A stretch of DNA of 63,207 nt, filler included, from Globobulimina sp. (Eukaryota), in assembly GCA_003354225.1 (NCBI GenBank). It is 23 parts of 23 records of this genome, joined end to end, with 100 filler letters (N's around TTAATTAATTAA, not from the genome) between each part and the next. Parts side by side here need not be neighbours in the genome. Positions count along the whole stretch, not along the records: positions 11,018 to 13,671 come from PIVH01005512.1; 22 more parts are not named here. The stretch is one strand, 5' to 3'. The translations under genes were made by a program, and so were the position numbers. Positions 11,797 to 38,447 of the stretch are shown piece after piece (position 1 is the first letter of the stretch; every line of letters starts with the position of its first letter). A model generated the notes under the pieces. That model was not told where the DNA came from and ran no database searches. It saw nothing but the letters and a program-made list of their open reading frames with translations.

Positions 11797-12054
11797 CCTC
11801 CACATATATGTGGAGGAAAAGGTTCTACCTCCACATAATTGTGGAGGAAAGGGCTCTAACTCCACAAATTTGTGGAGGAAATGCGTTTCCCTCCACATAT
11901 ATGTGGAGGAAAAGGTTCTACCTCCACATAGATGTGGAGGAAAGGTCTCTTCCTCCACATACATGTGGAGGAAACAGGTAGGAAGGTTGTCTCCCTGCAC
12001 ATATATGTGGAGGAAATGTGTAGAAATGGTTATCCCTCCACAAATATGTGGAGG
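11797..12054. repeat. Array of eight 20-bp palindromes CCTCCACA-N4-TGTGGAGG
   Basis: Units start at 11797, 11828, 11859, 11890, 11921, 11952, 11994 and 12035 (spacing 31,31,31,31,31,42,41). Confidence 0.95.
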
Positions 12055-12087
12055 AAGATGGAATCGAAGTAGATTTTAGCAATAAAT

Positions 12088-12490
12088 AGTATGGTTTTAC
12101 GAGAAAAGATACAGTTTTGTGACAAATTTCATGTGTTTACAAGAAAAAGTATGGTTTTATGAGAAAAATATGCAGTTTTGTAACAAATTTCATGTGTTTT
12201 ACAGGAAAAAGTCTACTTTTATGAGAAAAATATGGACTTTTGTAACAAATTTCGTGTGTTTTACAAGAAAAAGTATGGTTTTATGAGAAAAATATGCAGT
12301 TTTGTAGCAAATTTCATGTGTTGTACATGAAAAAGTATGGTTTCGTGAGAAAAATAGGCAGTTTTACAACAAATTTCATGCATTCTACCAGAAAAAGTAT
12401 TGTTTTATGATAATAATATGCAGTTTTGTAACAAATGGCATGTGTTTTGCGCGAAAATTATACATTTTCGGTAAAATAACAACAGTTTTT
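12088..12490. repeat. Tandem repeat of about 62 bp, about 6.5 copies, with alternating T and A tracts
   Basis: Unit is approximately AGTATGGTTTTATGAGAAAAATATGCAGTTTTGTAACAAATTTCATGTGTTTTACAAGAAAA, starting at 12088, 12148, 12210, 12272, 12334 and 12396, then decaying. Confidence 0.9.
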
Positions 12491-12932: not shown

Positions 12933-13671
12933 ATGTCAAAACGTTCCCATACTGATGACGATGTTTTTGAAATGTTGTCTATGGACAATGAAAAGGAGAC
13001 AGTCAAGAAGAGTTTTCTCAAGGAATATGATGATTTGACACCTGGCGGTAAGGAATATAAGCCATTTTTCATACTAAGAAACAATTATTCTGCTTTAGAT
13101 CCAGACAGGGTATACTTTAATGTTCCACCTTCAAACGAATTCGGCACCGATTTGAGCAAATGCTTTGTCGAAGTCGAATTGAAAGTTGTAAAGGAGAATG
13201 GACAAAATCTGACAAAGGAAGATGAAGAGAAAATCCAACCCTGCAATGACTTTTTCAATGCAATGTTTTCGAATGTTGACATATCGATTAATGGAACAAC
13301 TATTGGAAGCACTCTGGAACCTCATCCCCAAATTGCTTTGGTGCACAATCTTCTCAACTACGATGAGAGATTTCAAGAAAATGTGCTTTCCATGTCAAAT
13401 ATCTGGATGAAAGACTATCAATACCCTGCCGCGAATGCCGTGATTCGTCACCGATACATTGAAGGAAGCAAACGTCTTACACTCTATGGTCATTTGAACC
13501 ATGATGCCTTCACAACACAACGACTTTTGTTGCCAAAAGTTTCATTGCAAATAAAGATGAGACGCAGCGACCCAGCTTATTGTCTGATTCGTAGTGAAGG
13601 AGTGGAAGATGAGTACAAAATCGAGATTCAATCTTGCAAACTAAATGTTCGACGTGTTTTGTACTATGACT
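12933..13671 (+). CDS. Polinton/Maverick major capsid protein (double jelly-roll), 3' partial
   Basis: Ordered motifs typical of Polinton MCP: YFNVP..EFGTDLS...EVELKVVK.NG, PCNDFFNAMFSNVDISING, LLNY, WMKD, LYGHLNHDAF..QRLLLP.V.L.IK.RRS, YKIEI.SCKLNVRRV. Confidence 0.85.
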
Positions 13672-35795: not shown

Positions 35796-38447
35796 AGCAA
35801 TCTCAGGATCTCCGGGTCCAATGAGTGTCTTTATAGTTCTAAATGCATTTAATTTGCTTAAAATAAATATCGTAATCTCGCCAGAACTCCATTCTCTACA
35901 TATTGCATCCAAATCATTTGAAACATAGTCCTTTTCAAACGCATCAACAAATGCATCGTACGGTAAATTTAAATGTTTCTCAGACATTATTTCAAAGTCT
36001 AAATTAATTAACCTCTGTTTTATATAATTTACATTGTTTGAGGTTATATGCGGTTTAATAATCAATAGACACTTTTGCTTCTTACTATTTTTCTGCAGCT
36101 GAATTAATTTTAATTTTTTATCTTTAATTTGTTTTTTAAATACTTGATACGAAGTAGTCTCAGATATATTGTCTTCGTCATCGAAAAACACGTCATAATT
36201 CTCCAAAAAAACCTCCTTTGTAAGCGATACCTCAATGGCGTTCTGTATCAGATTTGTGCCATATATCGCTCGTATACTACCCGGTTGTTCCTGTACTGCG
36301 ACATTTGGATCCCGGTCGCCAGCCATTTCCACAATATCTTGCAAACCATTTATTTTCTCCAACACCATCACAATGATTTGATCCGACGCTAAATATTGTA
36401 TTTCTTCCTCAAAATAATGCTGCGGTATATCCAATTTTAAATTGGCATACACGCTCTCAGACAAATGCACAACTTTTTGTTTAACAATGTCGAAGCCGCC
36501 ACCAATTAGTTGCGTACGCACGCGATCCCCGTACAATTTGGCCGCATTCGGTTTGATGATTACAAAGATTCGATCTGTGGCCTGATTGAGTTTATGTTTA
36601 TATTTGCTATGACTGTTCCCACTGTATTGTGAGTGCGAATCTTTCATGGAATTCACCACAAAGTCCTCTTCAAAAAATAGCTCAGATTTTTCCGTCAACA
36701 CATCTTGCTCAGTCCCACTGCAATGAAATCCATTGTGGATCAAATCAATGCCATATATGGCACGCAAACAGTGCGGGGAATGCAATTTTGCATCATTTGG
36801 ATCAAAGGGACCCACCAATTCATTCAAGCACGAAATGGCATTCACGCGATATAGCATATAACATATGATCTGGTCCTCGGCCATGGCGGCACATAATTTC
36901 TCGAAAAACGATTTATTCTCATATTTGCGATAAAAATCCTGCCATACCATGGCCGGCATATTCATCGGTCGCGATTTGCCGATAAAAAAGCCTCGTTTTG
37001 CTAATAACCTCTCAACGTCGCCTGCATACTCCGTAGCGTGCGGCTTAATGATTAATATCGTCTCTTCAATGGGGTCCAACGCAAACATGGTCGACAACTG
37101 TGTCTGCGCAGAGTGCACCGACTCATTCACCGACAACACCGCGTTCTGAATGGCCGTATTCCGTTTATTCACTTTTAAACTATGATCCTCAGACAATGCA
37201 GGGGTGCCAAATCTTTTTCGTTTGGATTTTAAAGTGTTTACACTGCCATTATCAGCAAAGTGGACAGCACCGTCATTGAAGAAAAAGAATGCTCGATCGC
37301 GCCAAAAATCCGCCTCGCAGCGGCAAACATACACCGCTTTGTCGGCAATGCTCGAATCGCCCGAACTGTACATCGATTGTATCTGTTCTGTGAACTGTTG
37401 CAAGGCATTTATGCAATTCCCCACACGGGACACCATAATCACCGCCCATTGGCCAAACGTCATAGACTCACAAAACTCGTCAAAGCCTTCGATGGTCGCG
37501 AAATATGGATGGAAAAATTGCTGCGCCACCGACAATTCCATGGATTGCATCTTTTTGTTGACGACCACATTGAATTCCTTTGACTTCAATAAGTGGAGGA
37601 TTTTGGTCCTATACTTGAACCCGTTGGGCTTTACAATCATAAATGAATATTGATACGAATCATCGATGGATTCGTGTTTAAAGAAAACGGAATCTAGAAA
37701 GAAAAACTTGCGCTGCTTCCTCATTTCTGGAACATCGCGTGAACAGTACACGGCATTGCGTATCTGGTCTAAGCCGTACTTTTTGGAGATGATTTGGCTG
37801 ATTTCCAGCACTCTATTTAGTCCTTGTTGTACTTTGCCAAATGATTTATTGGTTTCATCGCCCAAACTGTACACACACACATCGCCGGTGCACATGTCCT
37901 CCACTATTAAGCTCATAACCTGTTTGTTCAACGACTGAAAGCTCGCATTTGCTTTCAAAAAACCATAGATAGCATCGGCATGGATAGCCGCAGTGCGTTT
38001 GGCCAATATGTTAATGTCATGCGACTGCAATAAGTGTTCAATGGCATGCTGATGTTCCATGGCATGCGGCTTAATTATCAATACTGCGCAAGGCGCGCAT
38101 TGGTTGTAATAATTATGACTGTTATAACCGTACGAAGTGGCACTGGCAGTCTCGTAATCATGTTCCACTTCGACTTTATAGTCATTGATAGATGGCACTG
38201 TATACGCATCATTGTCAGGGTTGCCATCCAACAGTGCAGAATTGCTGTTATCTGCGTCACCAGTTTCGTCCAATGGGTTTTCCGATACATCCTCAAAGAA
38301 AAAGAAGGAAAACACTTTTTTATAGTGTCGCTTTGATTTGGTGTAATAGACGCAATTGCGTACTACGTCGATACCATACAGCGCACGGATTGAATGTGGA
38401 GCTACTTTGCCCGCTACGTTTGGGTCTGAGGGCCCAACGATACGTTT
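35796..38447 (-). CDS. Tandem NDK-domain protein (at least 6 nucleoside diphosphate kinase-like domains), both ends partial
   Basis: One open frame spans the contig. An upstream partial domain (GPSDPNVA..VAPHSIRALYGIDVVRNCVY) is followed by five I(I/V)KP-starting domains. Confidence 0.88.

Follow-up and report, generated by a model that had tools for sequence, protein, structure and literature searches.

A helically phased palindrome array in a Polinton-type element as a probable recognition platform for the element's own zinc finger-ATPase

DNA pumps are made sequence-specific by a DNA-reading domain in several systems, namely the FtsK gamma domain with KOPS, Streptomyces TraB with clt and the phage small terminase with pac, where a winged-helix or HTH domain does the reading and the recognition sites, close to the reader's own gene, are direct repeats with a polarity. 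Zinc-finger nucleases bind inverted GNN-type half-sites with the finger C-termini pointing inward towards the dimerising domain. The sites described for such nucleases have a 6-nt centre (PMC5859405, available part). The adenovirus packaging domain, as given in the accessible sections of two reports, consists of seven redundant A-repeats (A1-A7) at a two-turn spacing of 21 bp that are bound by the packaging ATPase IVa2 together with L4-22K; IVa2 also acts on the major late promoter, and the domain must be near the genome end (PMC5033970, PMC4346872). According to the available parts of three further reports, Polintons encode a protein-primed polymerase, the core genes of Caenorhabditis Mavericks are called intronless and Polinton particles are inferred from gene content only; neither a finger-ATPase fusion nor a palindrome array is described in these parts (10.1101/2023.08.22.554363, 10.1101/2022.07.12.499685, PMC8502044). 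Introns in such elements are known in the form of dinoflagellate introners (PMC12166617, in part), stand-alone finger genes occur in Tetraselmis PLVs (PMC9356565, in part), and the accessible portions of PMC12090768, PMC12085832 and PMC11814242 held nothing of use on the element. A literature search, with most subscription journals, supplements and Repbase-type annotations outside its coverage, did not find a self-addressed array with a finger-ATPase of the kind reported here.

The array lies in a window (the whole stretch of 63,207 nucleotides that was analysed) made of 23 unrelated short contigs joined by N44-TTAATTAATTAA-N44 spacers, so that only the contig at 11018-13671 (2,654 bp, 36% GC) is relevant to it. 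Both ends of this contig fall inside genes, with at least 780 bp of the ATPase gene between the array and one end and 1.6 kb between the array and the other; there is no polymerase or helicase gene on these 2,654 bp. It may be noted that the contig joints create spurious repeats at 2,754-bp spacing as well as ORFs spanning the joints. Other contigs of the window hold a local duplication (7010-8038, offset of ~680-710 bp, 91-98% identity), an ORF with three nucleoside diphosphate kinase domains (35799-38060, minus strand) and an ORF with C-terminal C2H2 fingers (61142-62470, plus strand).

A pattern scan of the 63-kb window gave 8 matches of CCTCCACA-N4-TGTGGAGG, all within 11797-12054, for a chance expectation of 0.06 on average, and 8 matches were reached in 0 of 100 shuffles. 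The motif has no further match in the window at up to 3 mismatches and is absent from the other 22 contigs; the count elsewhere in the assembly, which the initial annotation had proposed, thus stands at 0 other copies inside the 63-kb window only. The feature at 11797..12054 (no strand assigned) is an array of eight 20-bp dyads with the core CTCCAC-N6-GTGGAG and 15 intact GTGGAG half-sites, and the dyads start at 11797, 11828, 11859, 11890, 11921, 11952, 11994 and 12035. It had been described as eight near-invariant palindromes with mismatches in copies 3 and 7 and with variable centre and spacers, and the motif scan and the column conservation bear this out (one mismatch in each of the two copies; conservation of 0.97 and 1.00 in the arms, 0.78 in the 4-bp centre, 0.64 and 0.75 in the flanks). 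The start-to-start spacings, 31 five times, then 42 and 41, came out the same on recount. Of the claim that all sites face one side of the DNA at 10.5 bp per turn, the phase-locking stands and the period has to be changed, because the coherence of the dyad centres is R=0.97 at 10.4 bp and 0.80 at 10.5 bp, which makes 10.3-10.4 the best helical period. Of the 26 distances in the range of 25-50 bp, only 4 come to within 1 bp of some multiple of 10.4, and the chance of both irregular spacings (41 and 42) keeping the phase is therefore ~0.02. Also, a 93-bp higher-order unit does exist, but it is made of copies 1-3 repeated as copies 4-6 (91% identity) and not of copies 1-2 and 4-5. The array start, placed earlier about 90 bp upstream of the zinc finger-ATPase start, is 87 bp from dyad 1 to the first ATG of the finger gene; from the array to the capsid start codon it is 879 bp.

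The intergenic region between the divergent ATPase and capsid genes measures 1,222 bp. Adjoining the array, between it and the capsid gene, is a 62-bp tandem repeat (12074..12448, no strand assigned, 6.1 copies) of alternating T- and A-tracts, which is a candidate for bent or phased DNA. The AA/TT period is 10.3 bp in this repeat, with a weaker continuation to ~12930 that fades towards the capsid gene (power of 17.9 in the repeat and 4.8 in the continuation, as against shuffled 99th percentiles of 1.8 and 2.1). Since the array and the A/T tract are both phased, most of the intergenic region is helically periodic. The tract resembles bent DNA or the A/T clusters that occur periodically in nematode genomes. 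Its 62-bp unit has no similarity to the dyad unit beyond 8-bp words, and therefore the relation 62 = 2x31 reflects a shared helical period and not common descent. A bacterial promoter/terminator scan stayed at chance level.

On the far side of this region lies the 5' part of a double-jelly-roll major capsid protein gene (12933..13671, plus strand, 246 codons), which ends with the contig. The capsid model has a pLDDT of 86.5, and the top Foldseek matches are the mavirus MCP (E=1.3e-6), vaccinia D13 and the Sputnik MCP; in the Atlas, the protein goes to a DJR-like cluster (0.98) and to F54H12.2-like clusters too. Its homologues number 1114 (~440 aa). Pfam gave no match for the capsid or its homologues, and the sequence search of the PDB gave only weak hexon matches (E=0.13 and 0.76). 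The array had been placed between the capsid and packaging-ATPase genes of a Polinton-like element: the capsid side holds, through Foldseek, the Atlas and the fold itself, and on the other side is a putative ATPase, identified by its motifs, with an A32 profile that is not significant. We therefore call the element Polinton-type, an assignment that rests on the capsid fold and falls short of a proven Polinton. Intronless core genes are typical of the described nematode Mavericks without being strictly defining; here two GT-AG introns are predicted, at positions common to a relative (L014) that is described below. Short introns with TTTCAG acceptors look nematode-like, and the top Atlas cluster of the capsid is commonest in Nematoda. 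A nematode host was considered and not accepted, the other contigs of the window having given only generic eukaryotic domains. In sequencing run X1, 100 contigs match the stretch, 50 of them at below 95% identity, and runs X2 and X3 have none. Run X1, possibly the source sample, shows that several diverged copies are present and is not counted as independent support.

The finger gene lies on the minus strand. Its exon 1 (11363..11710) encodes two C2H2 fingers, a linker and the start of a P-loop up to the first half of Walker A. The fingers, at ~aa 7-57 (Pfam zf-C2H2, E=1.6e-9), are 28 residues apart, with helices H18-28 and H46-56 in the model and base contacts at positions -1, 2, 3 and 6; the helices read RQDNYDR in finger 1 and RKDSLKR in finger 2. 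The pair aligns gap-free to Zif268-type structures, and the inter-finger linker is not of the canonical TGEKP type. The linker at aa 63-90 is of low confidence in the structure model. Intron 1, a sequence prediction (11308..11362, minus strand, 55 nt, GTGAGT...TTTCAG), splits Walker A and has an L014 counterpart of 53 nt at the same position. Exon 2 (11220..11307, minus strand) carries the second half of Walker A (GKTT) and the next strand and is 62% identical to L014. The predicted intron 2 (11168..11219, minus strand, 52 nt, GTAAGT...TTTCAG) has an L014 donor site at the same position, and exon 3 (11018..11167, minus strand) ends with the contig at a Walker-B-like LIIIDD. When intron 1 is read unspliced, the frame stops after 122 aa and gives a fingers-only product, and all 12 homologous exon-1 ORFs (a weak thirteenth match, P0164, was left out of the counts) have the same layout and stop shortly after the same point. 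Intron 1 retention could thus yield a separate fingers-only regulator.

For the ATPase part, both the Walker A motif and the Walker-B-like one are collinear with giant-virus A32 (24% over 103 columns, E=0.2, for an incomplete gene), and a two-sequence A32 profile scored 0.6 bits on this incomplete gene as against up to 4.5 in shuffles. The separate ATPase exons had no match in Pfam or PHROGs, exon 3 had none in the Atlas and a search of the phage collection was likewise blank. Exon 1 and the capsid had 0 related loci in the viral contigs, and no longer forms of either protein were found at E<=0.001, which is weak evidence because introns break the predicted proteins. The family call, a putative P-loop ATPase, draws on the motifs, on their spacing relative to giant-virus A32 and on the neighbouring capsid gene.

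An Asp at helix position 2 of a C2H2 finger permits G or T as the next base. In the available part of one source, Arg reads G, Asn reads A, small residues permit more variation and finger arrays run antiparallel to the read strand (PMC13752505). The part of a design table that is accessible for the target GTGGAGGAA lists RQDNLGR and RSDNLVR as GAG fingers and RTDTLAR and RSDDLVR as GCG fingers (PMC5260015). By the zinc-finger code, the predicted target of our finger pair is 5'-G(T/C)G-GAG-3' followed by G or T, with which the array arm, T-GTG-GAG-G, agrees; the chance of G[TC]GGAG[GT] in an arbitrary 8-bp arm is 3e-4 to 1e-3. G or T follows GTGGAG in 34 of the 35 half-sites at three loci. The fingers account for 7 of the 8 conserved base pairs of the arm, leaving the invariant 5' T unexplained. 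It may be noted that RxDS fingers can also read GCG, and that no paper was found to assign the exact finger-2 helix to GTG. Also, the RxDNxxR helix is very common in giant-virus finger genes (89 loci), so that finger 1 alone is not distinctive.

Metagenome contigs scanned for two adjacent dyads gave one locus, L014, with 8 full dyads, 1 partial dyad at the contig edge and 1 decayed dyad at spacings of 31, 32 and 62 and with a phase coherence of R=0.98 at 10.4 bp. This array stops ~160 nt before an orthologous finger gene, which has both intron positions in common with the window gene, is 39% identical to it in the exon-1 protein and encodes the helices RPDNLKR (finger 1) and RTDSLKR (finger 2). 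Between the two arrays the arms are 98% identical and the inner spacers 31-39%, whereas within each array the spacers are alike at 70% and 89%; the unit is therefore re-homogenised in each lineage while arms, centre length and period are kept. This pattern, drawn from one relative, is as predicted for selected protein-binding sites and not for a drifting minisatellite. The initial annotation had asked whether arm sequence and helical spacing are kept in relatives and had named absence from close relatives as a ground for rejecting its reading: L014, the one relative with DNA, has the array in the same place, with the 31-bp period retained, arms that are 98% identical and a phase of 10.4 bp. 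In the 13 family sequences, finger 2 has R at -1, D at 2 and R at 6 in 13 of 13 and S at 3 in 12 of 13, P0161 having N there. Finger 1 has R at 6 in 13 of 13, position 3 is N in 10 and D in 3, and positions -1 (N, Q or I in some relatives) and 2 vary. As finger 1 is variable and finger 2 near-invariant, lineage-specific arrays are predicted. By eye, a diverged copy in run X1, at window position 11679, has an Asp at position 3 of finger 1, like P0155 and P0162. A single sample may thus hold copies that differ in their predicted address.

Among viral contigs, one exact dyad was found at 13 loci, of which 12 lie without a related finger gene. The exception (L005), first found via the palindrome, has a two-finger gene whose helices read RSDNMKR and RADSMKR, with its dyads lying at -547 and -139. 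By a count that gives no positions, its giant-virus bin (G001, 835 kb) contains only 2 CTCCAC-N6-GTGGAG sites in all at up to 1 mismatch, and two dyads within 700 nt upstream of this gene have an expectation of 3.5e-7. Among the 9 paralogous finger genes examined in the bin (taken from 11 loci, out of 17 matches), GTGGAG lies upstream of the L005 gene only, and the reverse scan by helices, for which the first Asp codon was taken as GAT only, gave 8 matches with 1 real finger gene, again that of L005. The finger gene of the element matches L005 in tblastn at E=2e-4, confined mainly to the fingers, and the best viral match to the Polinton-type fingers (E=5.6e-8, 128 sequences) is weaker than generic C2H2 matches in the PDB; judged by sequence, the Polinton-type fingers are no closer to giant-virus fingers than generic C2H2 similarity allows. 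At 3001-3430 of L005, before the finger gene, the dyads are 408 bp apart and bracket a 25-bp tandem repeat of 8.3 copies; dyads paired with a minisatellite are common to L005 and the window. Two G001 paralogues have another dyad in common, at -267 and -307. Relaxed double-motif loci (14 in viral and 21 in prokaryote contigs) were mostly pairs with no finger-ATPase or capsid match and were set aside as unrelated; one of the scanned loci (L033 near 8001, in a Prevotellaceae bin) has five TCCACA-N4-TGTGGA-like dyads at an exact 41-bp spacing. The other prokaryote and phage matches, mostly pairs, resemble inverted DnaA-box-like sites.

Viral finger genes, gathered solely on a protein motif (89 loci, of which 80 had flanks, plus 15 loci), came to 65 non-redundant genes, of which 60 were classed and 5 mixed or other were left out. 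In the 56 non-redundant genes of the first set, CCTC..GAGG led the 256 inverted 4-mer dyads upstream, at 6 loci as against 0.3 expected; compared with neighbouring genes (6 of 55 vs 0 of 38) its p is 0.08 and not significant. The upstream excess of GAGG over neighbouring genes (4.9 vs 1.6 per kb) is matched by that of GGGG (4.1 vs 1.2 per kb). With upstream regions only, the S/A genes in which GTGG exceeded GAGG were 6 of 8, as against 11 of 52 among the N genes (p=0.003). A first downstream control in the S/A genes had 4.4 GTGG per kb as against 4.9 upstream, and it is GTGG-rich because phased repeats lie inside the 5' coding region; the regions were redefined after this control was seen, as upstream plus 5' coding vs 3' coding. 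With the redefined regions, GTGG exceeded GAGG in 7 of the 8 RxD[S/A]xxR genes (1 tie) and GAGG exceeded GTGG in 45 of the 52 RxDNxxR genes (2 reverse, 5 ties), a class contrast of p=2e-7, and in the 3' coding control the classes did not differ (p=0.66). In the comparison of helix classes, CCT is the synonymous Pro codon used before C in 93/108 vs 9/30. Word spacings on the same strand peak at 10-11, 20-21, 30-32, 40-42 and 63 nt, i.e. multiples of ~10.5. On a quick tree of 51 of the 65 rows (14 were left out), the 5 placeable S/A genes are scattered, with 5 changes of which at least 3 are forced. Within the own 5' coding region of the C2H2 genes at loci L059-L138 and L148-L162, viral contigs of which many come from giant-virus bins, we also saw repeats of 10-, 11- or 21-bp period. 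The word in them depends on helix position 3, being GAGG where this is N and GTGG where it is S/A, and the dependence reaches as far as the choice of synonymous Pro codon. Tandem finger genes at L150, L157, L158, L160 and L162 have GIY-YIG-like N-termini by eye, with GTGG-rich leaders and dyads. Natural viral genes thus appear to pair S/A at position 3 with GTG and N with GAG, and, this being so, the window protein has both helix types in the order that spells the arm, GTG-GAG.

We consider it likely that the array is a self-recognition platform to which the element's own finger-ATPase is predicted to bind. The proposal of a cooperative platform with the adjacent zinc finger-ATPase as its reader had been made at the outset, and conservation in L014, the match of helices to arm and the viral covariation all argue for it. 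The half-site T-GTG-GAG-(G/T) would be the docking site of the two N-terminal fingers of the ATPase, with finger 2 (R-1, D2, S3, R6) on GTG and finger 1 (R-1, D2, N3, R6) on GAG, where D2 of finger 1 would permit the G or T that follows. Because finger 2 would sit nearest the 6-bp A/T-rich centre of the dyad, the C-termini of the two finger pairs should point inward over it and the C-terminal domains should face each other, so that two ATPase-bearing subunits would meet at each dyad centre. Eight dyads at 3-4 turns would line up on one DNA face and favour a cooperative assembly, which would adjoin the 10.3-bp-phased A/T tract. We infer the binding, the dimer and the higher assembly on one DNA face as well as the splicing and the ATPase family.

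The same position and phasing would also serve an enhancer read by a dimeric transcription factor of the host, in which case its agreement with the element's own fingers would be a coincidence or a relic: the promoters on either side are divergent, with start codons at 87 bp and 879 bp from the array, a cooperative factor of any kind is suited by helical phasing, and one would expect the conservation in L014 just as much if both elements have one host group. We find a host factor quite unlikely, however, as it leaves unexplained the finger-arm match (3e-4 to 1e-3 by chance), the conserved contact residues of the fingers and the recurrence of the same helices with the same dyad in an unrelated giant-virus gene. 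That the repeats are a selectively neutral minisatellite, which slippage or unequal exchange amplified and which both elements took over from their common ancestor, is very improbable, since the arms are 98% identical across lineages as against 31-39% in the spacers, the irregular spacings of 41 and 42 stay in helical phase (4 of 26 distances would) and none of the other 22 contigs of the window has the motif. The 31-bp tandem unit with its 93-bp higher-order repeat, the spacers homogenised within each array (70% and 89%) and the second minisatellite alongside do fit such an origin, and slippage is very likely the mode by which the copy number of the array turns over.

Baculovirus hr and EBV oriP are the repeat-type origins or enhancers with which the array has been compared, and palindromes within tandem repeats that adjoin a long phased A/T-rich tract could make a replication origin or enhancer that the finger protein, or some other protein of the element, would bind and in which the A/T tract would be the region of unwinding. 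We give this little credence, because a protein-primed polymerase such as that of Polintons starts at the genome ends and needs no internal origin, and the contig is without a polymerase or helicase gene. Folding of single strands, be it into DNA hairpins or cruciforms or as a structured RNA, is hardly credible: the region as ssDNA does reach -75.9 kcal/mol (z=-12 vs shuffles), but this follows trivially from repeated palindromes, the arms do not vary and show no compensatory change from one lineage to the other, the spacing is tied to the period of the double helix and Rfam gives only 14 matches, all below threshold.

If the self-recognition platform is accepted, there is about an even chance that it serves mainly for feedback on the divergent ATPase and capsid promoters, which is the simplest use, as the array is 87 bp from its own gene start and inside the element and the giant-virus layout is the same without a motor. 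Selection or loading of the element's own DNA for packaging, alone or with feedback as in adenovirus IVa2, would be a serious possibility at somewhat less than even chance; it is considered because the fingers are fused via a flexible linker to an apparent packaging motor and because of the adenovirus precedent, and it is counted against by the adenovirus domain having to be near the genome end when the array lies between two genes. Some other use, as an origin or for tethering, is unlikely. Taken on its own, the stronger statement that a Polinton lineage has its cis-acting packaging signal in this array, and in its ATPase a built-in reprogrammable 'small terminase' of two C2H2 fingers, is doubtful. 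Under this packaging reading, the ATPase would assemble on the phased array beside its own gene, each co-resident lineage would pick its own genome from the host DNA, and a variable finger 1 with a fixed finger 2 would supply each lineage with an address code of its own, changing in step with its array. The predicted protein-site pair is small and readable by the zinc-finger code, and it bears on two questions about Polinton-type elements, the control of their capsid module and the distinction of their own DNA from host DNA. Should the packaging role be true, the array would be a candidate recognition signal for the virus group, parallel to the adenovirus A-repeats with IVa2; should only feedback be true, it would still be a case in which a motor is joined to its own regulator. 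That giant-virus finger genes follow the same helix-to-word rule suggests a self-addressing design that recurs among eukaryotic DNA viruses.

The array with its predicted reader works like the adenovirus, DNA-pump and giant-virus finger systems but is a member of none of these, as sequence, reader fold or C-terminal domain differ. The element is like a Polinton/Maverick module (eupolintovirus, adintovirus) in having a double-jelly-roll capsid gene beside a putative P-loop ATPase gene with an FtsK-like layout of packaging-ATPase motifs, and unlike the described modules in the finger-fused ATPase, the palindrome array and the two predicted ATPase introns. Adenovirus and the element belong to the same virus lineage with double-jelly-roll capsids. 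As with the A-repeats, short redundant repeats lie at whole helical turns (31, 41 and 42 here), and, going by the available parts of the adenovirus reports, the predicted reader is again the element's own packaging-type ATPase, for which IVa2 would be the double-role precedent. By the same partial accounts, the A-repeats are non-palindromic (TTTG-N8-CG) and near the genome end and IVa2 has no C2H2 fingers and needs L4-22K, whereas the element has dyads of another sequence between divergent genes and a fused C2H2 pair as the predicted reader. With FtsK-KOPS, TraB-clt and terminase-pac the element would have in common a DNA pump made specific by a DNA-reading domain and sites near the reader's gene; compared with them, it has C2H2 fingers and symmetric dyads in a eukaryotic context. 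It resembles zinc-finger nuclease sites in the inverted half-sites around a 6-bp centre and in the predicted inward finger C-termini, and differs from these nucleases, which are engineered, have 3-4 fingers per side, act at a single site and have a nuclease output. Giant-virus multi-copy C2H2 genes, which we take to be of the MIGE type, have a C-terminal part that is no P-loop ATPase, lack introns and lie in giant-virus genomes, while the fingers here precede a P-loop region and face a Polinton-type capsid gene. They are alike in that a two-finger protein has helices matching short phased words around its own gene, and in L005 both the helices and the dyad are those of the window.
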